A DNA stretch of 64,000 nucleotides from Bacteroidetes bacterium MED-G17 (GCA_002457675.1 NTKK01000004.1:27666-91665); one strand, 5' to 3'; shown: positions 45,446 to 64,000, numbered from the stretch's first letter. Made by a program: numbers and translations. The notes: generated by a model from the letters alone, not told the origin.

Positions 45446-46228
45446 ATGAATAGATATAATGAAATTAGGGCAATAAGTTACCAAAGGCATTTGGTTCCTC
45501 TGATGATGGAAAACTCTGCCCATGTGTTTATAGAATCTCTTTCAAGCATTAAGGCAAATAGTATAATGGACATTGCTTGTGGAACTGGCGTACTAACAAA
45601 TTTACTTGCCAACAATTTTCCGAAAGCAAGGATTGTCGGGACAGATATAAGCGAGGATATGCTTGCCTTGGCAAGAAAGCAATCTCAAAATACAAATGTT
45701 GCTTTTAAGCTATTGGATGCGCACATGTTGAAGGAAGTTGAAAAATTTGACCTTATAACTTGCCAATACGGCTATATGTTCTTTGAAGATTACACGGTAT
45801 TTTTAAGACGGGCAAAAGCATCACTTAAGCCACATGGCAAATTGGTTTTCAGCACTTGGGACTCACTTGAAAAAAATAATTTTTTTTATGAATTATGTTC
45901 CAAAATAAGTCAGCTGACACAAGCAGAATTTTTATCCGCACTTTCTGTGCCATTTGAATGCAATAAACCAGAAGAAATTGTAAATGATGTGCTGCAATGC
46001 TTTAATAATTGCACCTATAAAATTGTAGAAATTTCTTTAGGTAAAATGTCATTTGAAGACGTAGTTTCAGGTTTTATCGATGGTAATGTGCTATTTCAAG
46101 ATATAGAGCAAAACAACCCAAATGGATTCAAATTATTAAAAAGGATTTGTGCAAAACATCTTGCAGAAAAATTTTCTAGTTATTGGCAATCAGAAAAAGC
46201 ACTTGCTATTCAATTTGAAGCAAGTTGA
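45446..46228 (+). CDS. class I SAM-dependent methyltransferase
   Basis: Motif I MDIACGTGVLTNLLANNF; motif post-I ARIVGTDISEDMLALAR. 260 aa. Confidence 0.75.
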   Translation: MNRYNEIRAISYQRHLVPLMMENSAHVFIESLSSIKANSIMDIACGTGVLTNLLANNFPKARIVGTDISEDMLALARKQSQNTNVAFKLLDAHMLKEVEKFDLITCQYGYMFFEDYTVFLRRAKASLKPHGKLVFSTWDSLEKNNFFYELCSKISQLTQAEFLSALSVPFECNKPEEIVNDVLQCFNNCTYKIVEISLGKMSFEDVVSGFIDGNVLFQDIEQNNPNGFKLLKRICAKHLAEKFSSYWQSEKALAIQFEAS

Positions 46229-48282
46229 GTGTCGATTAGTTCTTTGTATGATTTAAGAAGGAAAGCCCCGAGATTTTTATTTGGAGCCACATATTCTTCA
46301 AACATTGTTTGCGCTTTTTTATTGGAAATATTCCTTTTTAATTCATTCCAAAACAGAGACCATTCAAGATCTTTTCCAAGCCTAATCCACTCACTCAATC
46401 TTAAACTAATCTGATTGTTTATGAGGTAAGTACCAACTTGTCTAGAGCTTATTATGTGAGCATTAGGGCTTCTTAATAAAACTTTGGATATATTATTGTA
46501 GCCACCACATGATCCTAAGAATACCAATTTTGCGTTAGGCGTTATGGAAGTTATAGCAATGTTTGCATAATAACTGTGTCCCCGATGTACGACTACATTT
46601 GGAAATTTTCCTGTTTTTCTAAAAATTTTCTCAATTGCTAATTGGCCCTCATATTCATATTTATTTTTATTGGCATATATCGTTACTTTCTTCCCAGAAG
46701 TACTTTTAATCCTTACATAAGTTTTAAAATCTTCAATTTTCCATTTTGTATGATTGAAGCTATGTAAAAATGTAGCAAACGAAGTCACACCATCTGCATC
46801 ATCATAAAAGAAATGTTGTTGAATATGCTCTTTCCCATCATGCACATCCTTCCAAAGTAGATTTTCTACACCAATTTGTTGCAAATCGTTTTCCATAACC
46901 GTTGAATGCTTGATTTTGGTAATATGAAGAATCAATTCATATAGCTTCTTGTCCCAATATTGTAAGCGAACATCCTTCGCTGCGTGAAGTAAAGCGTTCG
47001 CAAAAAGCTCTTTATTGGCTGAATTCCGTAAACTAGTATAGGTATTGACAACCGTAACAGCATGCTTTAAATCGCCACTCTTTTTTGACAACCCTTGAAA
47101 TAAGTGTTTAAACATGACTTTTTTCTCCCAAGTTGTCATATTGTCAACGAAAGCATTAAAAACATTATAATTTGCGCATATCTTCAACCACGTACTCAAT
47201 TTATTCAATCCTAAATTGTGGACAAATTCAAAGTTTGATTCTTCATTTATTTTTGGCAATAAACGCGCAAAAAGCCCTAAGAAGGTAGAAGTGAAAATTT
47301 CCTCCTCACCGTATACAGCTAAAGTATAGAGCGCTCTGGCATTCATAGTTTCAAATGGTTTAAACCGTATTTGATCTGAACGATCATGGAGGTCATTAAC
47401 TTTTCTAATAATTCTTAAACTCTGTAGTTTTAACTCTTCATCAATTGAATTGGATGCATACACCTTTGGGTAGTATCGCAAATGGACCAATCTGTTAAAT
47501 AATTTTTTTGAATCAACGCTTATTGCATGTGCATCTTTTATATCATAACGATTGTTTATAATGTCGTCAAGCAAAAGATAAGTTCTTGTTTCCGAACCAT
47601 AAGATTTAAAAATTTCCCTAATGGCTCTTGCTGCCGGTGTTTGCAGCTTATCAAAAACCATACGCACTTTATTTTGGCTACCTAAATATCCTTTAAGGTG
47701 CGTAGGACTTTCATCTGCCATTTTTGCAATAAATGCATGAGACCAAGATTTATTCGCCATCTTTCCAAATTGTCGAAGTGTTTCAAATGGAAATTTTTCT
47801 GAAGCTGCAAAAATGACATCTTGAGAATAAGGTTCTTCAAGAAAAAACGGAATCAGCCTTAAAGCCAAGTTTGGCATGCTTTTTAACACCAATGAGGCTC
47901 TTTCTTCGGAATATCGTTGTACTTTCATTACCATTTCAATATCAGCAAGGTAAATATTGTACATCGGATATCTCTCTTTAGAAATACTTTGATACCAAGA
48001 CAGTAAATGCTTTAGTTGCAAAATTTGCAGTTGGAGGTTTTTCAGTTTTTTAATATCTGCTATAACAATATTTGGATAAGTTATATAAGCTCTAGAGGAT
48101 CTTTCTGTTTGGATGGTTGTTTTATGGGCAGTTTTTTCGTCAAGTACACCATCATAAGCATCTAACCTGATTTGCTCATTTTTTATTGATTCGAGTAAAT
48201 CCTGAATATTTTGAGCACGCACATGGATGGATAAAGAAGTGAAAAATGAAAGGAATAAGAAATGGATTATTCTAATCCTCAT
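46210..48282 (-). CDS. large secreted hypothetical protein with a caspase-like His/Cys motif near the C-terminus
   Basis: Signal peptide MRIRIIHFLFLSFFTSLSIHVRAQ. Near the C-terminus: ...NVVVHRGHSYYANIAITSITPNAKLVFLGSCGGYNN.... This is a hydrophobic strand plus H-G, followed about 25 aa later by a hydrophobic strand plus G-S-C-G, the arrangement seen in clan CD (caspase/gingipain-like) peptidases. Confidence 0.5.
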   Translation of the reverse strand: MRIRIIHFLFLSFFTSLSIHVRAQNIQDLLESIKNEQIRLDAYDGVLDEKTAHKTTIQTERSSRAYITYPNIVIADIKKLKNLQLQILQLKHLLSWYQSISKERYPMYNIYLADIEMVMKVQRYSEERASLVLKSMPNLALRLIPFFLEEPYSQDVIFAASEKFPFETLRQFGKMANKSWSHAFIAKMADESPTHLKGYLGSQNKVRMVFDKLQTPAARAIREIFKSYGSETRTYLLLDDIINNRYDIKDAHAISVDSKKLFNRLVHLRYYPKVYASNSIDEELKLQSLRIIRKVNDLHDRSDQIRFKPFETMNARALYTLAVYGEEEIFTSTFLGLFARLLPKINEESNFEFVHNLGLNKLSTWLKICANYNVFNAFVDNMTTWEKKVMFKHLFQGLSKKSGDLKHAVTVVNTYTSLRNSANKELFANALLHAAKDVRLQYWDKKLYELILHITKIKHSTVMENDLQQIGVENLLWKDVHDGKEHIQQHFFYDDADGVTSFATFLHSFNHTKWKIEDFKTYVRIKSTSGKKVTIYANKNKYEYEGQLAIEKIFRKTGKFPNVVVHRGHSYYANIAITSITPNAKLVFLGSCGGYNNISKVLLRSPNAHIISSRQVGTYLINNQISLRLSEWIRLGKDLEWSLFWNELKRNISNKKAQTMFEEYVAPNKNLGAFLLKSYKELIDTQLASN

Positions 48283-48814: not shown

Positions 48815-51463
48815 TTGTTTACAAACTTGAACTGGTCTTTAGTTAATTTGAATAGTTCATTGGCAAAAGTAATAAGTAAAAAAGAAACCCCTTTGATGCG
48901 CCAGTATCGCGAAATCAAAGAAAAATATCCGAATACTATTCTTCTTTTTAGAGTGGGTGACTTTTATGAAACGTTTGGGAAAGATGCTATAATTGCTTCT
49001 GAAGTCTTGGGTATTGTACTCACTAAAAGGGCAAATGGTAAAGCTTCACATGTAGAGTTGGCTGGATTTCCTCACCATTCATTAGATGTTTATTTACCAA
49101 AACTTGTAAAAAATGGATATCGAGTAGCTGTTTGCGATCAATTAGAAGATCCAAAAAAAACAAAGACAATTGTCAAAAGAGGCGTTACAGATATGCTTAC
49201 GCCAGGTGTGGCAACCCATGACCAGGTGATTGATGCTAAGAAAAACAATTACTTATGTTCATTATATCAAGTTGACAAGCAATTAGGGCTTGGTTTTGTT
49301 GACTTTTCTACTGGAGAATTTCAAATCACTCAAGGTCAATTAGATACCATCGTAACACTGCTTCATGCCATAAATCCGGCAGAAATTTTGGTAAGTAAAA
49401 AACAGCAAAACTCTATAAATGAACTGTTAAAGGAGAAATACTATTTATATGCCATTGAAGACTGGTTTTTTGATACCGATTTTGCCAAAGACAAAATTTT
49501 CCATCACTACAAAGTCAATAATCTAAAAGGTTTTGGTATTGAAGATTTGGATCTAGCTTTACTTCCTGCAGGAGCAATATTGCACTATTTTCAAGAGACC
49601 CATCAAGAACATGTAGGCCATCTTCATGCTTTGAGTAGATTAAATTATGATGACGTTTTGTGGTTGGACCAGTTCACGGTTAGAAATCTTGAGTTAATTG
49701 ATTCAGCTCATCCTGACGGTTTAAGTCTATTAGATATTTTGGACAAATGCAGCAACCCGATGGGTTCTAGATTATTAAAAAAATGGCTGTTACGCCCTCT
49801 GGTTGATCTTAATGAAATTCAAAAAAGACAAAAAATTGTTTCTTTATTTTTCTCTAAACAAGAATTTGAGAGTCAAACTAGTTCACTACTAAGGAATATC
49901 GGTGATTTAGAGAGAATGGCTGCCAAATTGGCCTTAAGAAAAATTGGTCCACGAGAATTAAAACAAATGGCCCAGTCAATTAACCATGTTGTTGAGCTCG
50001 AGTCGATATGTACAAAAGAATTATCAGCCGCTTCATTTCCACTTCGAAGTGAAAAAACCATAAAACTGGTTAAAGAAATAGAAACCTATCTCGTTGAGGA
50101 ACCTCCTGCCCTTTCTACCAAAGGAGACTTAATTCAAGATGGAATTGATGAAAAACTAGATCAGTTTAGGGACATCAGAAAAAATGGCAAAGAGCATCTA
50201 ATCAATATCCAGCAAAAAGCTATTGAAGAAACAGGTATAATCTCTTTAAAAATCGGGTTCAATAATGTATTTGGGTATTATTTAGAAGTAACAAATGTTC
50301 ACAAGGACAAAGTGCCTTCAAAATGGATAAGAAAGCAAACACTTACCAATGCAGAAAGATATATTACGGAAGAGCTAAAACAATATGAACAGAAAATATT
50401 GAATGCAGAAGAACATATACTCGATTTAGAAAAGAAAATTTATGACGCGTTTATAGAGCGTATACAATCCTATGTTCCAATCGTCCAAAATCTATGTTTT
50501 TACTTGGCCCAATTGGATTGCTTAAGATCTTTTGGCCATTTGGCGTTTACAAATAAATATACTTGCCCTAAACTTAAAAAAAGTCAATCTCTTTCTTTTA
50601 AAAAACTCCGACACCCTGTAATCGAGACACAATTGCCTAGCAATGAAAGCTATATTCCAAACGATCTACATTTAAACAAGGAAAACCAACAAATCATTGT
50701 TCTTACGGGCCCAAATATGTCAGGAAAATCTGCCATCTTAAGACAAACAGCTTTAGCAGTCATCATGGCACAAATAGGATGCTTTGTACCCGCTAATGAA
50801 GCAGAAATAGGAATAGTAGATAAAATATTTACACGTGTTGGTGCGAGCGATAATATTTCTCAAGGAGAATCAACTTTTATGGTTGAAATGCTAGAGACAT
50901 CAAGTATTTTAAATAATTTATCTTCTGATAGTCTGATTTTATTAGATGAAATTGGAAGAGGCACCAGTACGTATGACGGTATCAGTTTGGCTTGGAGTAT
51001 TGCTGAATATTTGCACCAATGTGCTGAAAAACCAAAAGTTTTGTTTGCTACACATTATCATGAGCTAAACCAATTGGAGAAAAAACATACGGGCATTGTT
51101 AATTTCCATATCAGTTCAAAAGAAATGCAGTCTCAGGTCGTTTTTCTCAGGAAATTGACAAGGGGCGCTAGCAACAGTAGTTTTGGTATTCATGTAGCAG
51201 CAATGGCAGGAATGCCCAATTCTGTTCTGCAAAGAGCACAAGCATTATTAAATGAATTAGAAAACGAAAGAGGAAAAAACCAATTGTTGGGGTTAACTTC
51301 CAAAAGTTTTGACAAGGCAATCCAACAAATACCACTTTTTGAAAATCAAAATAAAGAGTGGAAAGCACTAGCTAAACAGCTTTCTCTTATAGATACAAAT
51401 ACGATAACGCCTATTGAAGCATTACTTAAACTAAATGAACTTAAATCAATTATTAAGAATTAG
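48815..51463 (+). CDS. mutS: DNA mismatch repair protein MutS
   Basis: ETPLMRQYREIKEKYPNTILLFRVGDFYETF (mismatch-binding domain) and C-terminal Walker A GPNMSGKS. 882 aa. An in-frame TTG at 48860 (giving MAKVISKKETPLM...) is a plausible alternative start. Confidence 0.92.
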   Translation: MFTNLNWSLVNLNSSLAKVISKKETPLMRQYREIKEKYPNTILLFRVGDFYETFGKDAIIASEVLGIVLTKRANGKASHVELAGFPHHSLDVYLPKLVKNGYRVAVCDQLEDPKKTKTIVKRGVTDMLTPGVATHDQVIDAKKNNYLCSLYQVDKQLGLGFVDFSTGEFQITQGQLDTIVTLLHAINPAEILVSKKQQNSINELLKEKYYLYAIEDWFFDTDFAKDKIFHHYKVNNLKGFGIEDLDLALLPAGAILHYFQETHQEHVGHLHALSRLNYDDVLWLDQFTVRNLELIDSAHPDGLSLLDILDKCSNPMGSRLLKKWLLRPLVDLNEIQKRQKIVSLFFSKQEFESQTSSLLRNIGDLERMAAKLALRKIGPRELKQMAQSINHVVELESICTKELSAASFPLRSEKTIKLVKEIETYLVEEPPALSTKGDLIQDGIDEKLDQFRDIRKNGKEHLINIQQKAIEETGIISLKIGFNNVFGYYLEVTNVHKDKVPSKWIRKQTLTNAERYITEELKQYEQKILNAEEHILDLEKKIYDAFIERIQSYVPIVQNLCFYLAQLDCLRSFGHLAFTNKYTCPKLKKSQSLSFKKLRHPVIETQLPSNESYIPNDLHLNKENQQIIVLTGPNMSGKSAILRQTALAVIMAQIGCFVPANEAEIGIVDKIFTRVGASDNISQGESTFMVEMLETSSILNNLSSDSLILLDEIGRGTSTYDGISLAWSIAEYLHQCAEKPKVLFATHYHELNQLEKKHTGIVNFHISSKEMQSQVVFLRKLTRGASNSSFGIHVAAMAGMPNSVLQRAQALLNELENERGKNQLLGLTSKSFDKAIQQIPLFENQNKEWKALAKQLSLIDTNTITPIEALLKLNELKSIIKN

Positions 51464-52685
51464 TTACATAATATTTTTTTTAATAAATTTTAATTCAGTG
51501 TGCAGTCAAAATTTTTGGATAACGGATTATGCACATGATATGGTTGGTTTGAAAAAATACCATGAAATGGGCTATACAGGTAAGGGGGTGACAATTGCTG
51601 TTTTAGACAACGGATTTTACCGGGTTGACTCTATTGCAGCATTTGCCAAGCTCAGAGATCGCGGGGGCATAATAGCTACATTCGATGTGATTGCTAATGA
51701 CAGCAATGTTTTCGATCGAGGTAATCATGGCCTTTATGTTTTATCAATAATGGCAGGTTTTGTCAATGATTCATTTAACGGGAGCGCACCAAACGCAGAT
51801 TATATTTTAGTTCATACCGAAAACGCTTTAAAAGAAGTGCATCAAGAGGAATATAACTGGAAAACTGGTTCAGAATGGGCAATTGAAAAAGGTGCCGACA
51901 TAATTAATAGTTCACTAGGATATTCACTTTTTGACACCTTAGAAGGCGATTATTCCTACCAAGAAATGAATGGTAAATCTACTGTAGTAACCTTAGCGGC
52001 TGAAGCTGCTTCGAAACAGGTGCTGGTTGTAAATAGCGCTGGAAATAGTGGAAATAATTCCTGGTATCATATCACTGCTCCGTGTGATGGACCTTCCGTA
52101 TTTTGTATTGGCGCCTTAGATTCATTTGGAAGAGTAGCAGTTTTTTCCTCACGAGGTCCTACAGCAGACGGGAGAATTAAGCCAAATGTTTCTGCAATGG
52201 GCGCTAATGTGGCATTTATTAACAGTCGAGGTCGTTTTCAGATAGGAAGTGGAACCAGCTTCTCCTCTCCTCTTATTGCTGGTATGATGGCGTGTTTGAA
52301 ACAAGCTTTTCCAAACGCCAGCAATGAACTTCTTATGCGTTCGGTAGAGCAAAGTGCTAGTCATTACAATAACCCGAATGAGGCTATTGGATATGGGATA
52401 CCAAATGTATTATTGGCTGACTCCATTATCAAAAGCACATTGGCTTCAATCACAAACAATTCTAAAACTTCTACTCCTTTTATTTTTCCTAATCCAAGTA
52501 AAAACAAATTGTTTGTAGAACACAACTATCCAATCTTTTTACTTGAGTTGAAAAATGTTTTGGGCGAAATAATCATGTTTAGTCATGAAAATAAACTTGA
52601 CATAACAATGCTTCCAAAAGGTCAATATTTTTTACATATAACCGATAGTAGACAGAATTTTTGGGTGAAAAAGATCCAAAAGTAA
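51435..52685 (+). CDS. S8-family subtilisin-like serine peptidase with T9SS C-terminal sorting domain
   Basis: Catalytic triad motifs VAVLDNGF (Asp), HGLYV (His), GTSFSSP (Ser). C-terminal CTD FIFPNPSKNKLFVEH...LPKGQYFLHI. Confidence 0.85.
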   Translation: MNLNQLLRISYIIFFLINFNSVCSQNFWITDYAHDMVGLKKYHEMGYTGKGVTIAVLDNGFYRVDSIAAFAKLRDRGGIIATFDVIANDSNVFDRGNHGLYVLSIMAGFVNDSFNGSAPNADYILVHTENALKEVHQEEYNWKTGSEWAIEKGADIINSSLGYSLFDTLEGDYSYQEMNGKSTVVTLAAEAASKQVLVVNSAGNSGNNSWYHITAPCDGPSVFCIGALDSFGRVAVFSSRGPTADGRIKPNVSAMGANVAFINSRGRFQIGSGTSFSSPLIAGMMACLKQAFPNASNELLMRSVEQSASHYNNPNEAIGYGIPNVLLADSIIKSTLASITNNSKTSTPFIFPNPSKNKLFVEHNYPIFLLELKNVLGEIIMFSHENKLDITMLPKGQYFLHITDSRQNFWVKKIQK

Positions 52686-52688
52686 GAG

Positions 52689-53687
52689 TTAATATTTTTT
52701 TGAAATAAAAGAAGTATCTGTCAAAGCCTTCAAAAAATCTATTAGGTTCTTTTTTTCTTCAGGATTAATGTCAAAAGCTTTAATAAAGTGGCTTTTGTTT
52801 GGATGAATTTTTCCACCAGATGCGTAGTGATCAATTACCGCTTCTAAAGTTTCTATGCTTCCATCATGCATATATGGAGAGGTAATGGCAACATTTCTTA
52901 AGCTTGGAACTTTAAACTTGTCCCTATCTTGCTCTAAATAAGTTATTCGCATCCGACCTGAATCATTGGGATATTTTAATCTGTACAACCCATTATTCTG
53001 CAATGAGAAATTGCTAAAATTTTTGCCATTATGGCATCTTGAACAATACAAATCCTGAAAAAATAATTTCATCCCCTTCTTTTGGGACGAATTAAGTGCG
53101 TCTAAATCACCCGTAATGTACTGATCAAATTTTGACTGGTTGCTAATCAAAGTTCGCTCAAAACAGGCAATAGCATGTGTAATGACGAATGGATTGGGGT
53201 CAATTTGGTATGCCTTGTTACTTAAATGTAGATAGCTTACATTTTTTTTCATTCGCTCAGCAATCAAGCGAAGGTCAAAGTCAAATTCAGCGTGTTCTTG
53301 TACTGGCACCAATACCTGCATTTCTAGAGACGGAACGCCTCTATCCCAGTGCAAACCTGAATCTTGATCAACCACATTAGCCAAACTAGGCGCATTTCTT
53401 CCAACTTGCTGCTGCCTAATACCTACACTTTTTGCTTTCCCATCTGTAAATGCTTTTGTGGGTAAATGGCAGGTAGCACAAGATAGTGAATAATCTCTAG
53501 ACATTATGGAGTCAAAAAATAACCTTTGCCCCAAAAGCACTTTTATAGAATCAGATGAATTTTCTCTATAATATTGTGAGAAAAAGCTTTCGTTTGGTTT
53601 AAGAGGTATAAAACAATATTCTTCGTAATTATAGAAAGTAAAAAAAACAAGTAAACCTAAGAATCCTGCTTTAAGTTTTGCGACCAT
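52689..53687 (-). CDS. di-haem cytochrome c peroxidase / MauG-family protein (MbnH-like by gene context)
   Basis: Two CxxCH haem-binding motifs (CATCH, CSRCH) about 145 aa apart, plus the CCP-family motif HWDRGVPSLEMQ. N-terminal hydrophobic segment. It is the last gene of the copper-cluster operon. Confidence 0.8.
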   Translation of the reverse strand: MVAKLKAGFLGLLVFFTFYNYEEYCFIPLKPNESFFSQYYRENSSDSIKVLLGQRLFFDSIMSRDYSLSCATCHLPTKAFTDGKAKSVGIRQQQVGRNAPSLANVVDQDSGLHWDRGVPSLEMQVLVPVQEHAEFDFDLRLIAERMKKNVSYLHLSNKAYQIDPNPFVITHAIACFERTLISNQSKFDQYITGDLDALNSSQKKGMKLFFQDLYCSRCHNGKNFSNFSLQNNGLYRLKYPNDSGRMRITYLEQDRDKFKVPSLRNVAITSPYMHDGSIETLEAVIDHYASGGKIHPNKSHFIKAFDINPEEKKNLIDFLKALTDTSFISKKY

Positions 53688-53699
53688 AATTGGACACTT

Positions 53700-54683
53700 T
53701 TACTTTTTCACCATAAACTTTTTGCTAACCAAAAATGCCTTGTCTGACTCAAAAACAGCTAGGTAAGTTCCTTGGGGCAACTCCATATTTATGAAATAAT
53801 TACCTGCATTAGAAAGATCATTCTCAAATTTAAGAATCTTTCCTTGCATGTCTATTACTTTTAGATTTACACGATTTTCATAAGGAAATTCATAAAAGAT
53901 GGTAGGTGCATATGGCAGTCCATAATCAAAAACAACATGCCCGCTTCCCTGTTGTGGGTGTTTTTTAAGCGATGCAGTTGCTTCTGTATCAAAAACTTTA
54001 AACTTATTAGTATTGAACATAATCGTTTCGTTAAGCCAATATACACCATGATTATATCCTGCTTCAGCTAAGTCAATGTCTTTTAGCCAATCAGCAATAT
54101 TTACATATAGCTCGATTTCTGTGTCCTTACCATTTATTTTTCCTGTGGTTTCAATTTTATTTACTGGAGTTAAATATTCGTCATTGGCTGTAACATGAAA
54201 TTCAAATTTTTTGTCAAGGAGTCCATCCTTGTCATCGTCTATGCTTCCTTCAATTACCAAAAATCGATAGCCAGCAGCCCATCCCCAATGCATCGAAGGA
54301 TTCTTTAATGCCAAGGGGTGCGATTCATCATAAATAGCTGGGTTTAAGTGGTTTTTTTCAACATCAACGCCAACATCAAACTTTAAACCTTGTAATTTAT
54401 CTATTGTTAAACTGTTTAAATTATAATTAGAAATATTGGCACTTGCGAGCACATAATGGTCTTTTAGTGGAATACTTTGCCCATTGTCTTGAATCTCAAA
54501 ACCAGAAAGATAATATTGTACTCTGGTAATCTGCAAAGTCCTGCCAGAATTGTCGTAATACTTTTGATCGTAAGAGAAAGGCGTGCCATTCCACTCATGA
54601 TTTAACTTTAGGGTGATGTTTCCTTGGGCAAAAACGTTTGACGATAGATAAAGGAAAAGTTGAATAAAAAATAAATATTTCAT
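53700..54683 (-). CDS. secreted hypothetical protein (candidate MbnP-like partner of the adjacent peroxidase) with T9SS-type C-terminal domain
   Basis: Signal peptide MKYLFFIQLFLYLSSNVFAQ. No catalytic motif recognised. It lies 12 nt upstream of the di-haem peroxidase gene in the same operon. The C-terminal ~70 aa (...VIDMQGKILKFENDLSNAGNYFINMELPQGTYLAVF...) look like a T9SS CTD that lacks the usual PNP start. Confidence 0.45.
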   Translation of the reverse strand: MKYLFFIQLFLYLSSNVFAQGNITLKLNHEWNGTPFSYDQKYYDNSGRTLQITRVQYYLSGFEIQDNGQSIPLKDHYVLASANISNYNLNSLTIDKLQGLKFDVGVDVEKNHLNPAIYDESHPLALKNPSMHWGWAAGYRFLVIEGSIDDDKDGLLDKKFEFHVTANDEYLTPVNKIETTGKINGKDTEIELYVNIADWLKDIDLAEAGYNHGVYWLNETIMFNTNKFKVFDTEATASLKKHPQQGSGHVVFDYGLPYAPTIFYEFPYENRVNLKVIDMQGKILKFENDLSNAGNYFINMELPQGTYLAVFESDKAFLVSKKFMVKK

Positions 54684-54688
54684 AATTT

Positions 54689-55933
54689 TTAATGTTTAAT
54701 TATTTTATGTGTTGATATAGTTTGGTCAAAATGAAGTTGTAAAATATATACGCCGTCCGGAAAACCAGTCAAATCAAAGCTTTTCTGAAAAGATTCATAG
54801 CTTTTAAGCTTATTACCATCAATACTGATTAAAGTGGTTTTTTTAACTTGATCAACCTTTATTTTACCCAGCGTAATTTCAAAAATATCTGAAGTTGGAT
54901 TTGGAAAAATCCGCGCGTGTTGTTTTACATGTTTTTCAACAACAGGAAGGTCTATATGTACAATCCTTATTTTCTGCACACCCAATACTTTGCTATTGTT
55001 TAAGTCAAAATATTCGACCAGTATAATACCACTATCAAGTAGGTTATCTAAAGATTCATTCGATAGTAATATATCATATCGTTCACCTGGCATTACTTCT
55101 AAAATATTTACGGTATCTACGCCTTCAGGAATGGGTCTACCGTCTGTACTTACCACCCGGGCAAGAAATCCACTTGGAAATATAAATCGATTACCGCAAT
55201 TCCCAATATTGGCAAAGTGTAACAGGCTGTTGTAGTGGCGACGGGGATAGTCTGAAAAAACTTCAATGTGATCAAACAAAAAATCACTGTTTGACTTACC
55301 ATTTAACATTAAATATTGGGGATGATAGTCGGGAATTGATATTTCTGTATGGTTTGAATCGTATGCGTGTTGAATAAATTCTTTGGTATGCCAATGAGTG
55401 TCTATTTCAGATGTGAGAAAAGTGTACTCTTTACCCTCATATGAATAACCATAAATTTTGCCATATAATTTGGGATGGATAACAATAACTCCATACATAC
55501 CAGCCTGAACATGTATAGGTGAAACTACATGACAGTGGTATAAATATGTACCAGGGTGTTTCGCTACAAATTCATATTTACCTTGCTCGAGATGCTTGAC
55601 ACTAAAAGACAATTCTGGCACACCGTCATTGGCTTGATTAGCATCCAAACCGTGTAGATGAATGGTGTGGGGTGCTCCTTGAGAATAATTATTCAGGATG
55701 AGCGTCACAGAGTCTCCTTCTCCAAATTCTAATAATGGCCCTGGGATAGAAATAGATTGACCCAAAAGCTCTGTATAACCCATAAGGGCTATTTTGTTCC
55801 CGTCAGGCAGCTCAAATTGTGGTTCAAGGTCGATTTTTGAAAACAACTGTTTAACAACCCTTTTCTGCGCATATAAACCCTCAAGCATTAGAAAAACATA
55901 AAAAATGACTAGAAAAAATCGCGATTGTCTCAT
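54689..55933 (-). CDS. cupredoxin / multicopper-oxidase-domain protein with T1 copper site motifs and T9SS C-terminal sorting domain
   Basis: Signal peptide. The first domain carries HTIHLHG (HxxHxHG, residues ~89-95) and YHCHVVSPIHVQAGM (HCH-x5-H-x3-GM, residues ~133-146), i.e. MCO motif-3 and motif-4 equivalents in one domain. A second cupredoxin-like domain has THWHT. C-terminal CTD RIFPNPTSDIFEITL...GVYILQLHF. Confidence 0.7.
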   Translation of the reverse strand: MRQSRFFLVIFYVFLMLEGLYAQKRVVKQLFSKIDLEPQFELPDGNKIALMGYTELLGQSISIPGPLLEFGEGDSVTLILNNYSQGAPHTIHLHGLDANQANDGVPELSFSVKHLEQGKYEFVAKHPGTYLYHCHVVSPIHVQAGMYGVIVIHPKLYGKIYGYSYEGKEYTFLTSEIDTHWHTKEFIQHAYDSNHTEISIPDYHPQYLMLNGKSNSDFLFDHIEVFSDYPRRHYNSLLHFANIGNCGNRFIFPSGFLARVVSTDGRPIPEGVDTVNILEVMPGERYDILLSNESLDNLLDSGIILVEYFDLNNSKVLGVQKIRIVHIDLPVVEKHVKQHARIFPNPTSDIFEITLGKIKVDQVKKTTLISIDGNKLKSYESFQKSFDLTGFPDGVYILQLHFDQTISTHKIIKH

Positions 55934-56802
55934 GGATCAATACTTAAAGTGGTAAACATCCCCTTTGGATATTTTTTATTCGCTCTCAGTGCAGCCAAAT
56001 TATGATCATGTACAGGGTACTCACCTGGCTTGTCAGGTATGAGTTGTAAAATCATGGAGGCCATTGGATGGATTGGCAAGGTATCTTTTTTACGCCCAAC
56101 ATGGTTTGGAAATTTACTCGAATAAACAATTTCAACATGATAGCCATGAAAGTGTAGAGAGTGTATACCCAATCCTGTATTGGTTATATGAATAACCAAG
56201 GTATCTCCCACTGAACCAATTACTTTGGCGTCTGAATCTATATTGATATCCGGATTACTTTTTCCATTAATGGTGAATAGGTTTGGTTCATACAGAGCCC
56301 AATCTACAGATGTCCCTTCGCTAAGCTGAAAATTCAATGCATATTGATGGTCTTTTAGATTCCAATAAAAGGACTTATGTGAATGGTTTTTTACAACCAA
56401 CATCCCAGACAAACCAAAATAGGAATTGACTGGGAAATCATACGGATCGAAATAAATAAAAGCACCTTCCAAAAGGCGTTTTACCTCCACGAAGGCAGTA
56501 TCTTTGGGTAGAATTTCAATAGGACTTTTACTCAAACCTTGAATCTGAAATTGGTGAACATTATTGGTTCTGTTATGAATCAATAGTGTCAAGGTATCTC
56601 CAACTCTTGCGTTTAAAATTGGGTTTTCTTGCCTAAAATGATTGGTTAGATTATAACTTACATAGGGTAACTTTTCTCCATTGACTGTGAGCATAGAATC
56701 TTGGATGACAAATAAGTTGTAATGAACAATCGTTGATTGCGCACAGATAGAGTAAAATACTATGAAAATGGGTAAATACCACTTAACCTTATTCATGTAC
56801 AA
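55930..56802 (-). CDS. two-domain cupredoxin / multicopper-oxidase-like protein lacking the T1 cysteine
   Basis: Signal peptide. Domain 1 has NHSHKS (HxH). Domain 2 has GIHSLHFHGYH (HxxHxHG) and YPVHDHNLAALRANKKYPKGM, where the canonical HCH is HDH and the downstream His is absent. No T9SS CTD. 4-nt overlap with the downstream gene. Confidence 0.65.
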   Translation of the reverse strand: MYMNKVKWYLPIFIVFYSICAQSTIVHYNLFVIQDSMLTVNGEKLPYVSYNLTNHFRQENPILNARVGDTLTLLIHNRTNNVHQFQIQGLSKSPIEILPKDTAFVEVKRLLEGAFIYFDPYDFPVNSYFGLSGMLVVKNHSHKSFYWNLKDHQYALNFQLSEGTSVDWALYEPNLFTINGKSNPDINIDSDAKVIGSVGDTLVIHITNTGLGIHSLHFHGYHVEIVYSSKFPNHVGRKKDTLPIHPMASMILQLIPDKPGEYPVHDHNLAALRANKKYPKGMFTTLSIDP

Positions 56803-57490
56803 TTAGCTTTTGAGATGCCAACACATGAGCATCAAGTAAAAATTGTACGAAATATACACCTGGCTTCCATGAAGCAAGGTCAACACGAACACTCGGCTCG
56901 GATAGGTTGTGATTCTCGAAAACCTTTTTACCAGTTAGATCAAATATTACAAAGGATGTAAATTTATGATTTACAGGAATTTCAATGAAGTTAGATGCAG
57001 GATTTGGAAAAACTACAAAATCTCTAGCTGTCTGTGATTCATGAATGTTTGCGTTTTTAGCATTTATTATCCATGTGGCAGTATCTCCATCTTTAGGATT
57101 TTTTTTATTGAAAACACGCACTCTGTAGATGGATTCTTTCTCGCTATCCATAGGATTGACTGTGAGACGTACATAAGAATTTTCCTCACTTGTAGAGTTG
57201 GGGTTCATATCGAACATCTTGCCTTTTTCTAAAATAGAACCCAAGCATAAACCATATACACAAACCAAACCATCCCAATCACTCGGGATAGTACTTTCTA
57301 CGACTTCTATGCTTAACGATAGGGTATCTTCACGATTTTTTTTCACTTGTTCAATTTTCATCTCGGTATAAGTATTTTTTGCTATCACCTGAATGAGTGT
57401 ATCATTCGGATACCAAGAGAAAGACACTTGTGAAAATAAAATAAAAGAATTTCCTAAGACAAAAATTAAAACGGCAAACTTTTTAAACAT
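56789..57490 (-). CDS. secreted hypothetical protein with T9SS C-terminal sorting domain (first gene of the copper cluster)
   Basis: Signal peptide from the internal Met (MFKKFAVLIFVLGNSFILFSQ). C-terminal CTD FVVFPNPASNFIEIPVNHKFTSFVIFDLTGKKVF...GVYFVQFLLD. 14-nt overlap with the next gene. Confidence 0.5.
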   Translation of the reverse strand: MFKKFAVLIFVLGNSFILFSQVSFSWYPNDTLIQVIAKNTYTEMKIEQVKKNREDTLSLSIEVVESTIPSDWDGLVCVYGLCLGSILEKGKMFDMNPNSTSEENSYVRLTVNPMDSEKESIYRVRVFNKKNPKDGDTATWIINAKNANIHESQTARDFVVFPNPASNFIEIPVNHKFTSFVIFDLTGKKVFENHNLSEPSVRVDLASWKPGVYFVQFLLDAHVLASQKLIVHE

Positions 57491-57547
57491 ACCGACTCGA
57501 ATATACAAAAAATATTGAAAATGCATTCATCAATATTCTTTTCATTT

Positions 57548-57578: not shown

Positions 57579-57651
57579 GCGAAAGTAGCTCAGCTGGTAG
57601 AGCATCACCTTGCCAAGGTGGGGGTCGCGAGTTCGAATCTCGTCTTTCGCT
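57579..57651 (+). tRNA. tRNA-Gly (anticodon GCC)
   Basis: GCGAAAG acceptor pairs with CTTTCGC. D-arm GCTCAGCTGGTAGAGC. Anticodon stem-loop TCACC-TTGCCAA-GGTGG has GCC at positions 34-36. T-arm GCGAGTTCGAATCTCGT. No encoded CCA. Confidence 0.85.
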
Positions 57652-57679
57652 CTAACAATGGGTTAGCCCATTTTTTATT

Positions 57680-57763
57680 GCCCTGGTGGTGGAATTGGTA
57701 GACACGCAGGACTTAAAATCCTGTGGCCTCACGGCCGTGCGGGTTCAAGTCCCGCCTGGGGCA
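57680..57763 (+). tRNA. tRNA-Leu (anticodon TAA), class II with long variable arm
   Basis: GCCCTGGTGGTGGAATTGGTAGACACG...CAGGA-CTTAAAA-TCCTG (anticodon TAA)...long variable arm GTGGCCTCACGGCCGTG...GCGGGTTCAAGTCCCGC T-arm. The acceptor stem pairs with two G-U wobbles. Confidence 0.85.
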
Positions 57764-57798
57764 CTTTCTCAGGTCTTTTTTGTTTCTTTGCTAGTAAG

Positions 57799-58563
57799 GT
57801 GTTAAAGTTACATTTATCATTCTTCGTAAAAGTCTCTGCATTTGCGCTGTTTTTTGCTCGAGCGTATGAGCTTTATTTTTTAAAAAGTCCTTTGGCTTGG
57901 ACCTTGTCTGAGTTAGGCCTTAATCCTGGGCACTTGTTTTTAAAGTTTATCGCCCTACTCCTGTTTTCTTTTGCCGTTCTTTCCTTGTTTATATCCCATA
58001 AAAATTTCTCCAAATATTGGGGATTTGTTTTACCTGCAGTTGTAATTAAGTTGAGCATACTTTTTTCCTATTTTTGGTCTAACCATTTTTATTGGCCAAA
58101 AATATTGGAATGGTCATGGCAAATTTTCATCCCATTGCTTTTTCTTTGGATCTACAAAAAGTATAGATCTTTTGATGCCACTCGTATTTATCTAAAAGTT
58201 CTGCTTTGCGCAAGTTTGCTACCACATGCTTTAGACAGCTTTGCTCTCTTCGAAAACAGCAGCCATTATGTATACCTCACTTACAGGTTACTTAATATAG
58301 ACCAATTTATGTTGGGCATTCCCAATCAAATCTTGGCTGCCTTTCATTTGTCTATGTGTTTTTTTGTATTTGTAAAAAGTGTACGAAAGCCCTTTCTCAT
58401 GTATGCCCTTATCTTAGGCCTTTTAGTTGCTTTGGCTCGCTTGGTTACTGGATATAATCAAGATTTTGTTATTCTTTCTACAAAGCATTTTGTTTTTGAT
58501 TGCTTTTTACACCTACCCTTGGTGCTTGTTCCCTTGTCCTTATTAAGCCTAAGGGTAAAATAA
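57799..58563 (+). CDS. hypothetical polytopic membrane protein
   Basis: 254 aa, about 7 hydrophobic helices, no recognised motif. Confidence 0.4.
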   Translation: MLKLHLSFFVKVSAFALFFARAYELYFLKSPLAWTLSELGLNPGHLFLKFIALLLFSFAVLSLFISHKNFSKYWGFVLPAVVIKLSILFSYFWSNHFYWPKILEWSWQIFIPLLFLWIYKKYRSFDATRIYLKVLLCASLLPHALDSFALFENSSHYVYLTYRLLNIDQFMLGIPNQILAAFHLSMCFFVFVKSVRKPFLMYALILGLLVALARLVTGYNQDFVILSTKHFVFDCFLHLPLVLVPLSLLSLRVK

Positions 58564-60642: not shown

Positions 60643-62407
60643 ATGGCATCCATTTCCGCAAAGCTTTTTCTTGAAAATCAGAAATTTCCTTCTTCACTGA
60701 TAGCATATATCGGAATTCTTTTGCTGATTGATTTGTCAACAAAACAGACATCATACGACCATCACGTTGGAAACTTAATTCAAGTAAATTTTCTCTTGGT
60801 TTCATCGTTTTGATGAAATCTGGCAAACTTTGATTAATGCGGTATCCGTTGATGGCAATTAACTCATCGTTGGCACTTAACCCAGCCTTCATCGCACTTG
60901 AGCCGTATGCAATTGAAACTATTTTGGTAATCCCTCCACTATATTGAGTTTGCATGCCAAAAGGGACCCCTTGTCTCTCTTGAATGCTTATTTTCAAGCC
61001 TATTTCCTCTAAAATTGTGTAATCCAAGCTTCCTTTGCCATATACCCATTGATCTATTGCCTTTGTCAAATCTATGCCAGTCAGCTTGTTTACAGTATTT
61101 ACAAAAGTTTGAAATGTAAAACCAGCACCGTCTTTTTTATAGGTATCCCAATACAATTCATACATCAAATTATCGAGTGATTTTTCGCCATTGGTGGCTT
61201 TTAGTATATGTGCGTTGAGCAAAAGTGCTAAAAGCATGCCCTTGTTATAATAAGAAATATTGGTGTTCTTCGAGTCTCTATTTGGGTTGTATAATTTCAC
61301 CCAAGCATTCTTACTAGAATGAGCCAAGCTCATAACATTTTTTCCTGGGGTGTTTTCATAGCTTGAAATTTGCCCAGCAACTTGCCGCAAATAGTCAGAA
61401 CGGCTAGTAAATCCAGCACGATGAATTGTTAATTTATCATAAAAAGAAGTAAAGCCTTCAGCAAACCAAAGCAATTCGGTATAGTTTTCATTGTGATAGT
61501 CAAACGGCCCTAATTCAATTGGTCTGAGACGTTTAACATTCCATAAATGGAAGTATTCATGTGCAATAAGCCGAAGAAAACCCAAGTATTTGTTTCGATT
61601 GGCATAGGCAAAGCGATTGACCATGCTTGTTTGGGAATTTTTATGTTCTAAACCACCCCCACCATTGTCCACATTATAAACAAAGTGAATATAAATGGGC
61701 CCGGCTGGCTGGTCATTAAATAATTTGTATTGTTCATCGCTTATGGTTTTAAAATCTCTTCTAATTTGAGCGAGTTTATAGTTGCCTTTGCCCAACATGA
61801 CTACACAATGGGTCAAGCCAGCTGACTGGTATTGAACCGTATCAAAATTTCCAATCGCGAGCGGTGCGTCAGCTAAATCATCATAATTGGGTAGGGAAAA
61901 GTTATATGGCCCTAGTTCTTTCGCAGCTATGTGGGCGCTAGACCAATGACGAAGAGGTTTTATTTGTAAATCAATTTCATTATGTTCAAAACCTTCGACC
62001 AACATAAACGCTGAAGGTCCGTGAAGAAACGCATATTCGCCGTCAACATAGCTCTCACGTACACTTTGCTCAAAGCAAAAAACATTGTAGGTAAACGAAA
62101 CTTCCTTGAAATCCTCGCAGGCAACTACCCAAGTATTCTTATCTTCTTTTGAAACAAAAAGTGATTTGTCGCCGCTTTCAGCATAGACCTTATCAATGTT
62201 TCTAGAAAATTCACGAATTTTATAAGACCCAGGTGTCCATGTAGGCATACTGAAACGCAATTCTTTAATTTTAGGATCTTTTATAAGTTCTATAGTAATA
62301 CTTGCATAGTGATTGTTCCATCTTGGAAAGGAAACTTGATATGAAATTTGTGCCATAATCGCTTGACTTATGAGTGTGAAAAAAAATAAAATGCTGAGCT
62401 TTTTCAT
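60641..62407 (-). CDS. M61-family glycyl aminopeptidase with C-terminal PDZ domain (secreted)
   Basis: Signal peptide from the internal Met (MKKLSILFFFTLISQAIMAQ). HExxH zinc motif IAHEYFHLWNVKRL. C-terminal PDZ-like region (...GLSANDELIAINGYRINQ...). The ATG overlaps the upstream gene's stop (ATGA). Confidence 0.8.
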   Translation of the reverse strand: MKKLSILFFFTLISQAIMAQISYQVSFPRWNNHYASITIELIKDPKIKELRFSMPTWTPGSYKIREFSRNIDKVYAESGDKSLFVSKEDKNTWVVACEDFKEVSFTYNVFCFEQSVRESYVDGEYAFLHGPSAFMLVEGFEHNEIDLQIKPLRHWSSAHIAAKELGPYNFSLPNYDDLADAPLAIGNFDTVQYQSAGLTHCVVMLGKGNYKLAQIRRDFKTISDEQYKLFNDQPAGPIYIHFVYNVDNGGGGLEHKNSQTSMVNRFAYANRNKYLGFLRLIAHEYFHLWNVKRLRPIELGPFDYHNENYTELLWFAEGFTSFYDKLTIHRAGFTSRSDYLRQVAGQISSYENTPGKNVMSLAHSSKNAWVKLYNPNRDSKNTNISYYNKGMLLALLLNAHILKATNGEKSLDNLMYELYWDTYKKDGAGFTFQTFVNTVNKLTGIDLTKAIDQWVYGKGSLDYTILEEIGLKISIQERQGVPFGMQTQYSGGITKIVSIAYGSSAMKAGLSANDELIAINGYRINQSLPDFIKTMKPRENLLELSFQRDGRMMSVLLTNQSAKEFRYMLSVKKEISDFQEKALRKWMP

Positions 62408-64000
62408 TTGGAAAAAATAATTGGTGTCAATTCTTCGAAGTGGGAAACTGGTTTTTCGCAGGATTGGTTTCTGCATAAATAATATTTTGTTTCCTTTTGC
62501 CAACGACCTGCAAATAAAGGAATATTATCTTGTGGTTTATCGCTAAATGTAATTCGTATTTGTGGTAAATATTCACTGTGTAGTTCTTTCGCTGCATTTT
62601 TGGCATCTTCTCCGGTTATAACCAGCTCAAAACTTGGCTCTACATTATCTAAGTAAAGTAATAGCCAATTAGCGTATGCACCACCATAGTTTTCCATAGC
62701 TTCTTGAATTGGGATAAGCATATTTCTACTTCGTACGATATATGCATCTAAACCAAAATATAAACCCAATGTATACAAGTTCTCAGCCATAATAGAATTG
62801 TCAGAAGGGATAACATTGTCTGTTATTTGCTTCGGAATGTGGTGCAGGTCAGAGGCTTTTTTCTTAGACATATGAAAATAAGTATGTCCATCGTCTAAAA
62901 AGAGTTTATCTGCTGAAATTTGAAGTTGTTTGGCAAGTTGGAGATAGTCAGAACTCGAGGTCAATTCAAAAAGCCGAATTAGTGCCTTTATATAAAGAGC
63001 ATAATCTTCACAGAGGCCTTCTATACTTGACTTCCCATTTTTATATGCATGCCATAATTGTGGTGTATCTCCTTGCATTAAGCAATTGTCTTTCAAAAAT
63101 TGGTGCATTTCAATCGCATCATAAAGGTATTTTTCCTTATTAAAAGCAGCATAAGCATCACATAAGCCAATCATCATTAAAGCATTCCAACTGGTTAGCG
63201 ACTTGTCATCCAAAGCTGGTTTTATCCTTTTTTGCCGAACATTAAATAACTTTTGATTGATGCTTTCCACACTTTCTTGGAATTCGCTCAAAGACATATT
63301 GTGCTTTTGAGCAAGCACTGTATCCATTTCTCTTCTTAAAAGTATAAATTTATTTTCTTCCCAATAGCCAAAATGATTCAAATTATAATAGTCTTCTGCC
63401 AACTGCATTTCTTCAGGATTTAAAATGTCTTTGATTTCTTTTTTTTCCCAGACGTAAAATTTACCCTCTTCACCTTCGCTATCGGCATCCAAAGCAGCGT
63501 AGTAAGGGCCATTGTCTTGTTTCAACTCTTTCTGAATAAAGGCGATGCACTGTTCAGCTACTTTTTGATAAAGTGGGTTTTTGGTTCTTTTATAAGCATC
63601 AGAATAAACAGAAATTAACTGTGCATTGTCGTAAAGCATTTTTTCAAAATGAGGAACCTTCCAAATTTCGTCTGTACTATATCTTGCAAACCCACCCCCC
63701 AAATGATCGTAAATACCACCAAAAGCCATTGAATTCAAACTCAAGTCCACCTGTTTAAGTAACTCATCTTTTTTGCTCTGATAGGCATAGCGAGTCAAAA
63801 ATTGAAGATTACTTGGCATCGGAAATTTTGGTGCGCTTAAAGTTCCACCATTTTGATAATCTAAACGATTCACCCATTTTTCTATCGAATTTTTAGGAAT
63901 TTGCTGATTCAAGGTTTGTTCCTTGTTGAAAGAAAAGTGATTTTGTGCCGCAACACCTTCGGCAAGTTGCCCAGCAAATTGAACAAGTTTTTCATTGTTT
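62404..64000 (-). CDS. YyaL/DUF255-family protein (six-hairpin glycosidase-like domain). The N-terminal thioredoxin-like part lies beyond the window.
   Basis: ...NGGTLSAPKFPMPSNLQFLTRYAY...GGIYDHLGGGFARYSTDEIWKVPHFEKMLYDNAQL matches the YyaL family (GGFGxAPKFP..., FEKMLYDNA). The reading frame stays open upstream of the track's TTG start to position 64000, so the gene is truncated by the window edge. Confidence 0.65.
   Translation of the reverse strand, partial: NNEKLVQFAGQLAEGVAAQNHFSFNKEQTLNQQIPKNSIEKWVNRLDYQNGGTLSAPKFPMPSNLQFLTRYAYQSKKDELLKQVDLSLNSMAFGGIYDHLGGGFARYSTDEIWKVPHFEKMLYDNAQLISVYSDAYKRTKNPLYQKVAEQCIAFIQKELKQDNGPYYAALDADSEGEEGKFYVWEKKEIKDILNPEEMQLAEDYYNLNHFGYWEENKFILLRREMDTVLAQKHNMSLSEFQESVESINQKLFNVRQKRIKPALDDKSLTSWNALMMIGLCDAYAAFNKEKYLYDAIEMHQFLKDNCLMQGDTPQLWHAYKNGKSSIEGLCEDYALYIKALIRLFELTSSSDYLQLAKQLQISADKLFLDDGHTYFHMSKKKASDLHHIPKQITDNVIPSDNSIMAENLYTLGLYFGLDAYIVRSRNMLIPIQEAMENYGGAYANWLLLYLDNVEPSFELVITGEDAKNAAKELHSEYLPQIRITFSDKPQDNIPLFAGRWQKETKYYLCRNQSCEKPVSHFEELTPIIFSK

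Follow-up and report, generated by a model that had tools for sequence, protein, structure and literature searches.

For the MbnP/MbnH pair of Methylosinus, the formation of kynurenine has reportedly been shown to create a Cu(I) site, and the primary papers are said to have studied the MbnP-type kynurenine-copper proteins as periplasmic proteins. Multicopper oxidases whose genes accompany that of a small protein binding Cu(I) are represented by PcoA/PcoC, CopA/CopC and CueO, and the type-C two-domain oxidases form their trinuclear cluster where domain 1 of a subunit meets domain 2 of the adjacent one. The tryptophan of MbnP that is oxidised to kynurenine by MbnH belongs to a WxW motif and its oxidation is required for copper binding, the copper site using additionally one His and one Met (PMC11951088). 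MbnP-MbnH pairs are widespread outside methanobactin operons (PMC3621798). We describe here a cassette found in a stretch of 64,000 nucleotides from Bacteroidetes bacterium MED-G17 (GCA_002457675.1, NTKK01000004.1:27666-91665; the whole of this 64-kb stretch is called the window hereafter), where the calling of open reading frames (ORFs) has detected five tightly packed minus-strand ORFs at 52689-57526. The genes g1 to g5 encode the members of an MbnP-MbnH-like pair, two multicopper-oxidase paralogues and a small secreted protein, and three of the products carry a C-terminal sorting domain (CTD) of the type IX secretion system (T9SS). The cassette is probably a copper-handling module:

g1, 52689-53687, minus strand, 332 aa: MbnH-like (MauG-type) di-haem enzyme, no CTD, predicted periplasmic
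g2, 53700-54683, minus strand, 327 aa: MbnP-family protein, putatively copper-binding, with a fused T9SS CTD
g3, 54689-55933, minus strand, 414 aa: two-domain multicopper-oxidase paralogue with a T9SS CTD
g4, 55930-56802, minus strand, 290 aa: two-domain multicopper-oxidase paralogue with a signal peptide, no CTD
g5, 56789-57526, minus strand, 245 aa as longest ORF: cassette-specific secreted protein with a T9SS type A CTD

The genes overlap by 14 nt (g5/g4) and 4 nt (g4/g3) or are separated by 5 nt (g3/g2) and 12 nt (g2/g1), exactly as in the initial annotation, which had been made from the sequence alone and had reported overlaps or gaps of at most 14 nt.

On sequence grounds, g2 is a member of the MbnP family. 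It matches the Pfam family MbnP (PF20243) with an E-value of 3.9e-33 and a score of 115.4 bits (27-bit cutoff), over the model positions 2-184 of 189. In the protein, a linker connects the MbnP domain (~210 aa) to the CTD, and the ~250-aa secreted unknown of the initial annotation has to be corrected to this 327-aa architecture. The AlphaFold2 (AF2) model of g2 displays a mean pLDDT of 89.6, and its top Foldseek match is the MbnP structure 7L6G (E=6e-8), with which g2 shares 15-18% identity. In the alignment of 34 homologues, H212 and several glycines are invariant and M131, H122 and H163 are nearly invariant; these His and Met residues are candidates for the copper ligands. The WxW motif was located at the following position:

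54279..54290, minus strand: HWGW motif of g2 (H132-W133-G134-W135), with W133 and W135 invariant in 34 and in 17 homologues

Both the MbnP-like fold and the conserved tryptophan that the initial annotation had proposed to look for are consequently found in g2. By analogy, W133, the first tryptophan of HWGW, is predicted to be the residue converted to kynurenine. Some Bacteroidota homologues are already labelled 'MbnP family protein' at NCBI. Tandem MbnP genes (~325-335 aa) were observed in some cassettes of relatives, whose loci are designated by L numbers (L009:8966-10960; L013:8968-10933; L029:9986-11957; L002:11503-15311); L002 has in addition two MbnP genes of lesser length (260 and 251 aa) and another two MauG-like genes just downstream.

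The adjacent gene g1 is, according to its profile matches, an MbnH-like enzyme. The protein matches PF03150 (CCP_MauG) with an E-value of 6.8e-44, its top NCBIfam family is TIGR04039 ('MbnH family di-heme enzyme'; 254.3 bits) and its best PDB match is 6E1C (E=1.6e-39), which we take to be MbnH. Three motifs were examined among 111 Bacteroidota homologues:

53466..53480, minus strand: first haem motif CATCH of g1, invariant in the 111 homologues
53031..53045, minus strand: second haem motif CSRCH of g1, conserved among the 111 homologues
52824..52829, minus strand: H287-Y288 of g1, 96-98% conserved in the 111 homologues (Y288, 98%)

The initial annotation had recognised in the last gene a MauG-family di-haem enzyme by CATCH and CSRCH, and had proposed from gene order that it forms an MbnP/MbnH pair with its neighbour; the family matches of g1 and g2 agree with both statements. 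Y288 aligns with a Tyr of 6E1C. Relative to 1IQC, a canonical peroxidase, it is in a gapped stretch directly followed by the Met-containing segment of 1IQC. If the distal ligands of these two reference structures are those that we assume, this alignment hints at Y288 as a candidate Tyr axial ligand, with a ligation of the MauG/MbnH type. MbnP and MbnH occur as a pair in 85 of the 89 loci, namely in all 17 cassette loci and in 68 of the 72 non-cassette loci. A cysteine of g1 (C25), close to where the N-terminal hydrophobic segment ends, is common to at least 60% of the 111 MbnH-like homologues; it may be a lipoprotein anchor, although the preceding EEY is not a typical lipobox.

The products of g3 and g4 belong to the multicopper oxidases (g3 with PF07732, E=9.7e-16; g4 with PF07731, E=9.6e-11). 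For the profiles of both, the best matches are 3G5W and 2ZWN, two-domain oxidases of type C, and these extend over the two cupredoxin domains, with E-values of 4.4e-31 (g3, to 3G5W) and 2.6e-12 (g4). The comparison of g3 with g4 by hhalign gives a probability of 99.1% and an E-value of 5e-19 over 252 colinear columns. Since they align colinearly, the two proteins are full-length paralogues and not two halves of one gene. The identification of two cupredoxin or multicopper-oxidase-like proteins in the initial annotation is therefore upheld, whereas its 'split' oxidase is not: the paralogues have undergone a reciprocal loss of ligands, which is seen in the following motifs:

55652..55669, minus strand: HTIHLH motif of g3 (H89, H92, H94), invariant in 15 homologues, aligned with HTIHWH of 3G5W
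55496..55537, minus strand: motif HCHVVSPIHVQAGM of g3, invariant, aligned with YHCH...H...GM of 3G5W
56137..56154, minus strand: domain-2 motif HFHGYH of g4 (H217, H219, H222), invariant in 17 homologues, aligned with the domain-2 HTHGH of 3G5W
56002..56010, minus strand: domain-2 motif HDH of g4 (H265, H267), invariant, aligned with IHDH of 3G5W

Domain 1 of g3 keeps HTIHLH and HCH-x5-H-x4-M, which represent the T1 site together with half of the eight histidines of the trinuclear cluster (H92, H94, H133 and H135); within HCHVVSPIHVQAGM, H133 and H135 are assigned to the cluster and C134, H141 and M146 to the T1 site. In domain 2 of g3, non-ligands replace the 3G5W motifs HAIHTHGH and HDH. 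Conversely, g4 has lost the ligands of domain 1, where one histidine (H83) is left, and keeps in domain 2 the four other cluster histidines (H217, H219, H265 and H267). The HDH of this domain contains no cysteine and so provides no T1 copper site; it had been described as atypical, but HDH is the normal motif in domain 2 of type-C oxidases. The full set of ligands (T1 and eight cluster histidines) is thus absent from each single chain and complete only across both. As the interface between domain 1 of g3 and domain 2 of g4 is the only one with all eight histidines, an obligate heteromer with one catalytic centre is predicted, and from the ligand pattern it is probable that g3 and g4 do form a heteromer.

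The genes g3 and g4 are adjacent in every cassette locus, mostly with an overlap of a few nucleotides or directly abutting. A search has recovered 430 homologues of g4, and the 120 listed are all of at most 307 aa (mostly ~285 aa), none of these 120 being fused to g3 or bearing a CTD. Two other identities were rejected for the pair. A split oxidase does not agree with the hhalign result, both being full two-domain paralogues, and the scores for the nitrite reductase NirK are far below the cutoff, the conserved residues being HxH pairs and not single histidines.

The T9SS tags were identified with the NCBIfam model TIGR04183 (23-bit cutoff), which is exceeded by g5 (38.9 bits), g3 (35.2 bits) and g2 (30.3 bits), the number of three among five proteins having been correctly announced by the initial annotation. 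Their positions are:

56792..57013, minus strand: T9SS CTD of g5 (PF18962, E=3.1e-11; TIGR04183; profile matches to 8glj_D and 8glk_D at ~E=1e-9)
54692..54910, minus strand: T9SS CTD of g3 (PF18962, E=5.4e-9; TIGR04183)
53703..53939, minus strand: T9SS CTD of g2 (TIGR04183; profile matches to CTD structures)

The solved CTDs matched by the profiles of g2 and g5 include those of substrates caught in the T9SS translocon. As g2 carries a CTD, it is predicted to leave the periplasm. No CTD was detected by TIGR04183 in g1 and g4. For the relatives, a CTD profile was built from g3 and g5 only. With this profile, 84 of the 90 MbnP-like ORFs in 80 genome loci show a CTD, a proportion biased upward because the loci were picked by similarity to a CTD-bearing query, whereas none of 115 MbnH-like ORFs and none of 13 homologues of g4 does. 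The signal peptides of g2, g3, g4 and g5 end in A or S followed by Q, and in Bacteroidota a glutamine is commonly found directly after the signal-peptide cleavage site. In the locus L086, GldB and GldC are encoded near the cassette.

The fifth protein, g5, has an N-terminal domain of ~130 aa for which Pfam and PDB searches gave no match. A word-indexed search with this domain alone gave 2 proteins, whereas an exhaustive search of 1.84 billion representatives recovered 121 clusters, nearly all of 225-235 aa. The gene is present in 15 of 17 cassette loci. From the alignment of 12 homologues, one motif emerges:

57245..57277, minus strand: WDGLVCVYGLC motif of g5 (W-D-x3-C-x4-C), with W72, D73, C77 and C82 invariant in 12 homologues

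By its composition this motif is a candidate metal-binding or disulfide site. A cupredoxin fold was considered for g5 and rejected, a profile-profile comparison with g4 having given no match.

The same gene order and tight spacing are kept across families in at least 15 loci, in which the identity of MbnP to g2 decreases from 51% to ~29%; the conservation of the five-gene order, proposed as a check by the initial annotation, is thus observed. The order g5-g4-g3-MbnP-MbnH is found in L001/L006 (one Parvicellaceae locus under two designations), L002, L009, L013, L015, L020, L029, L043, L086, L087 and L088. MbnH comes first in L031 and the cassette of L012 is partial. The hosts (Flavobacteriales and Saprospiraceae) include Parvicellaceae, Crocinitomicaceae, Fluviicola, Vicingaceae and Aureispira, as metagenome-assembled genomes (MAGs). 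Three homologues of g4 picked regardless of context were all located in the same cassette, and at every locus examined the g4 homologue is in a cassette beside MbnP-MbnH (within ~6 kb in L011). In most other Bacteroidota loci MbnP-MbnH stands alone, often followed by a second MauG-like gene. This second, longer di-haem gene was observed after MbnP-MbnH in many loci from Saprospiraceae and Chitinophagales (L050, L052, L055, L056, L059, L063-L066, L072, L074, L078-L081, L083 and L085).

Genes related to copper were detected around the cassettes of several relatives. In L088 and L013, the cassette has a CopA-type P-type ATPase, CusB and CusA encoded on its flanks; in L006, CusA and CusB are near it. 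A small HMA (CopZ/MerP-like) protein is encoded beside the cassette in five loci and, in four of these five, directly upstream of g5. Conventional three-domain oxidases adjoin MbnP-MbnH in Saprospiraceae, and their occurrence in Bacteroidota lineages other than those of the cassette is an independent recurrence of the link between MbnP-MbnH and an oxidase. Three-domain multicopper oxidases were located within a few kb of MbnP-MbnH at L039:6882-8561, L063:13163-14941 and L040:9277-11562, two of them with weak CTD matches below the Pfam cutoff. Just upstream of many MbnP-MbnH loci and cassettes is a Cys/His-rich membrane protein of ~150 aa (DUF8199, NCBIfam HYC_CC_PP) with conserved HxC, CC and PP motifs:

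L001:4592-5095, L002:4421-4891, L004:7109-7540 and L013:5656-6120: DUF8199 proteins upstream of MbnP-MbnH or of the cassette

In Proteobacteria, copper-sensing DUF2946 represents such an upstream ORF (PMC9426467). The homology of DUF8199 with DUF2946 finds no support in Pfam and was rejected, the likeness being one of position only. In the window itself, none of these genes (copper efflux, HMA, TonB-dependent receptor, three-domain oxidase, DUF8199) was detected.

From these elements we infer the following scheme for the cassette, which we hold to be tentative and a little short of an even chance when taken in full. All five products would reach the periplasm via Sec. There, g1 would oxidise W133 of g2 to kynurenine and create a Cu(I) site, and g3 and g4 would assemble, domain 1 of g3 giving the T1 copper and four histidines and domain 2 of g4 the other four, into a heteromer with one trinuclear cluster for the reduction of O2. 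T9SS would export g2, g3 and g5 by their CTDs and would probably take g4 along with g3. At the cell surface, MbnP would capture Cu(I) and the oxidase would turn Cu(I), free or bound to MbnP, into Cu(II); copper would be buffered before its entry into the cell, in the manner of CueO or of PcoA with PcoC. As to the physiological direction, defence against copper (or its buffering) and uptake are about equally probable. Such oxidases usually serve in resistance, which speaks for defence, as does the location of the cassette inside copper-efflux islands in several relatives; this location makes defence at least as plausible as acquisition. The surface copper acquisition that the initial annotation had proposed as one possibility thus has in defence a candidate that is at least its equal.

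Several observations weigh against this scheme. The score of g2 with the NCBIfam equivalog TIGR04052 is 46.3 bits for a cutoff of 140 bits and covers residues 93-165 only. Searches of PDB sequences with g2 (single sequence and two profiles) have recovered CTDs only and never 7L6G; for these two reasons g2 is regarded as a divergent Bacteroidota branch of MbnP. The 254.3 bits of g1 with TIGR04039 are likewise below the cutoff of 362.85 bits. Since g4 is devoid of CTD, g3 and g4 could reach different compartments, and we know of no established precedent for the carriage of an untagged partner by T9SS. A g4+g3 fusion submitted to single-sequence AF2 without alignment gave an uninformative model (pLDDT 31). 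The neighbours of the cassette in the Pfam scan of the window ORFs are housekeeping genes with no efflux gene among them; MutS, SucC, GcvP, an S8 peptidase and a topoisomerase of DNA (Topoisom_bac) were recognised. A TonB-dependent receptor is encoded directly after MbnH in L001/L006 only, and the characterised relatives (MbnP-MbnH with MbnT, MopE/CorA, the DUF2946 operons) point to uptake and not to defence.

Copper acquisition is accordingly the first alternative to be weighed. In this case, MbnP with its kynurenine, exposed at the surface or released, would collect scarce Cu(I) from seawater and hand it over to an importer of the outer membrane, as a protein analogue of a chalkophore comparable to MopE/CorA of methanotrophs, with the oxidase helping to release or recycle copper. 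We know of no multicopper oxidase that serves in the uptake of copper, such oxidases being standard in copper resistance. Canonical MbnP-MbnH pairs sit with MbnT in copper-uptake operons, MopE is surface-associated and copper-repressed (PMC3621798), and the proteobacterial copper-repressed operons led by DUF2946 hold TonB-dependent transporters together with MbnPH-like genes (PMC9426467), much as DUF8199/HYC_CC_PP is located just upstream of many cassettes of relatives. The host is a marine planktonic MAG lineage whose locus lies outside any resistance island, and the receptor gene of L001/L006 also speaks for an importer. However, CopA/CusAB efflux islands enclose the cassette in L088 and L013, with CusA/CusB close to it in L006, and there is no transporter in or near the operon of the window. 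The homologue of the L001 receptor was not detected in the window, and no TonB-dependent receptor is among the ORFs scanned with Pfam. The absence of a transporter noted by the initial annotation holds therefore for the window, and not for its closest genome relative, where a TonB-dependent receptor follows MbnH. Taken together, acquisition is possible and in our opinion rather doubtful.

It is unlikely that g3 and g4 are two separate proteins, g3 being an exported T1-copper protein with a role in electron transfer or copper binding and g4 a periplasmic His-rich copper binder, with no trinuclear cluster between them. The distribution of the CTD, never on g4 and present on g3 in the aligned cassette loci, would predict different final compartments, and no complex model was obtained from the AF2 prediction mentioned above. 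Nevertheless, exactly the eight cluster histidines are invariant across g3 and g4, and precisely those ligands that a heteromer would make redundant are lost, a pattern hard to explain without a shared site; the constant adjacency of the two genes argues in the same direction.

A function of the oxidase on other substrates, such as extracellular phenolics, Fe(II) or Mn(II), with MbnP and g5 merely supplying or holding copper for its metallation, appears improbable. Among solved structures, the closest relatives (3G5W and 2ZWN) belong to general blue copper oxidases or laccases, secreted oxidases require a source of copper, and no methionine-rich Cu(I)-binding insert like that of CueO is evident in the sequences of g3 or g4. 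Against these arguments, g4 homologues accompany MbnP-MbnH at every locus examined, with the distance of ~6 kb in L011, and the genes neighbouring the cassette in relatives concern copper efflux or binding and not the metabolism of aromatics or metal oxides. Finally, that the five genes are chance neighbours without shared function is to be dismissed as extremely improbable in spite of the uninformative promoter and terminator scans, because their order and spacing recur in at least 15 loci from Parvicellaceae to Aureispira over the whole range of MbnP identities.

The case for a single transcription unit is made from spacing and synteny. A sigma-70 promoter scan was at chance level, with a model that does not cover Bacteroidota promoters, and a terminator scan gave no intergenic site and an excess of predictions that is not significant. 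In the alignment of its homologues, the longest ORF of g5 begins 12 codons 5' of the start used in all of them; the true start is likely the ATG at 57490, which would give a protein of 233 aa and leaves 88 nt up to the divergent tRNA-Gly gene. The tRNA pair that the initial annotation had placed next to the 5' end of the cassette is indeed present:

tRNA-Gly, 57579-57652, opposite strand to the cassette: upstream of g5
tRNA-Leu, 57680-57764, opposite strand to the cassette: upstream of g5

Just past this pair is a gene for a 254-aa hydrophobic protein without Pfam or NCBIfam match (57799-58563, plus strand). On the other side, an S8 subtilase with its own T9SS CTD (51435-52685, plus strand) converges on g1, the stop codons being 3 nt apart; an S8 gene with CTD is also found near the cassette in L002. 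Elsewhere in the window, ORFs without Pfam family at E<=1e-5 were observed at 46210-48282 (minus strand, 690 aa), 37552-39363 (plus strand, 603 aa), 62404-63912 (minus strand, 502 aa) and 44578-45444 (plus strand, 288 aa).

Members of the g2 and g4 clusters, with an identity of 90% or more, are found in the marine MAGs 'Bacteroidetes bacterium MED-G17' and 'TMED39'. These copies are annotated as hypothetical and occur on dozens of public metagenome contigs, including those of Tara Oceans; given this distribution of the MED-G17/TMED39 lineage, the cassette may influence the speciation of marine copper. Among the species representatives of GTDB, the closest is a Parvicellaceae MAG with an MbnP of 51% identity to g2.

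The initial annotation knew of no described system combining these elements, and none was found in the literature searched. No paper linking MbnP to T9SS or to Bacteroidota was found in a search whose reach did not extend to the primary MbnP papers, and the only paper found that names both MbnP and multicopper oxidases concerns proteobacterial operons (PMC9426467). Among the titles and abstracts listed by a search for it, no heteromeric two-domain oxidase was described. Oxidase neighbours may already be listed in the neighbourhood analyses of the primary MbnP papers. Hundreds of Bacteroidota MbnPs bear a T9SS tag, which would place kynurenine-copper chemistry on the surface of abundant aquatic bacteria and, if the scheme is true, g3/g4 together with MbnP would give Bacteroidota an extracellular copper redox system. 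The ligand loss of g3 and g4 would likewise represent a homo-oligomeric metalloenzyme turned into an obligate heteromer, which bears on the origin of the six-domain oxidases (ceruloplasmin). A tagged and an untagged subunit are also a direct test case for the carriage of protein complexes by T9SS. With some reserve, we suggest that g3+g4 could be a surviving step between the homotrimers of two-domain oxidases and the fused oxidases of ceruloplasmin type, crossing the outer membrane folded on the single CTD of g3, with g4 hitchhiking, to act as the surface partner of a kynurenine Cu(I) protein.

Compared with the known systems, the pair g2-g1 is closest to MbnP/MbnH of M. trichosporium OB3b (7L6G; 6E1C): in both, the partner gene adjoins a MauG-like di-haem gene, the WxW motif is invariant and 6E1C is the best solved relative of g1. 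It differs from it by the low identity of g2 to 7L6G (15-18%), by the CTD of g2, by the scores of g2 and g1 below the TIGR04052 and TIGR04039 cutoffs, and by the absence of the methanobactin operon and of MbnT at the cassette. In contrast to the canonical MbnPH-MbnT uptake module, the cassette of the window has no adjacent TonB-dependent transporter. The type-C oxidases (Nitrosomonas europaea 3G5W; metagenomic mgLAC 2ZWN) share with g3 and g4 an alignment over both cupredoxin domains and a T1 site confined to domain 1, the motif of domain 2 being normally HDH and not HCH. The known ones are homotrimers with all ligands in each chain, whereas g3 and g4 keep one half each and the cluster of the cassette needs both chains, only one of them with an export tag.

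Like PcoA/PcoC, CopA/CopC and CueO, the cassette combines an oxidase with a Cu(I) partner, and in some relatives it is located inside copper-efflux islands. The likeness is functional only, since no match to PcoB/PcoD, CopB/CopD or CopC-type families was found among the five proteins (Pfam, NCBIfam). The cassette has as partner an MbnP, predicted to be of the kynurenine type; its oxidase has two domains and is predicted to be heteromeric, and the predicted location is the cell surface via T9SS and not the periplasm via Tat. The system MopE/CorA with CorB of methanotrophs differs by its fold and its export route and has no oxidase partner; it shares with the cassette a surface or secreted kynurenine-site copper protein encoded beside a di-haem peroxidase (PMC3621798; PMC11951088).

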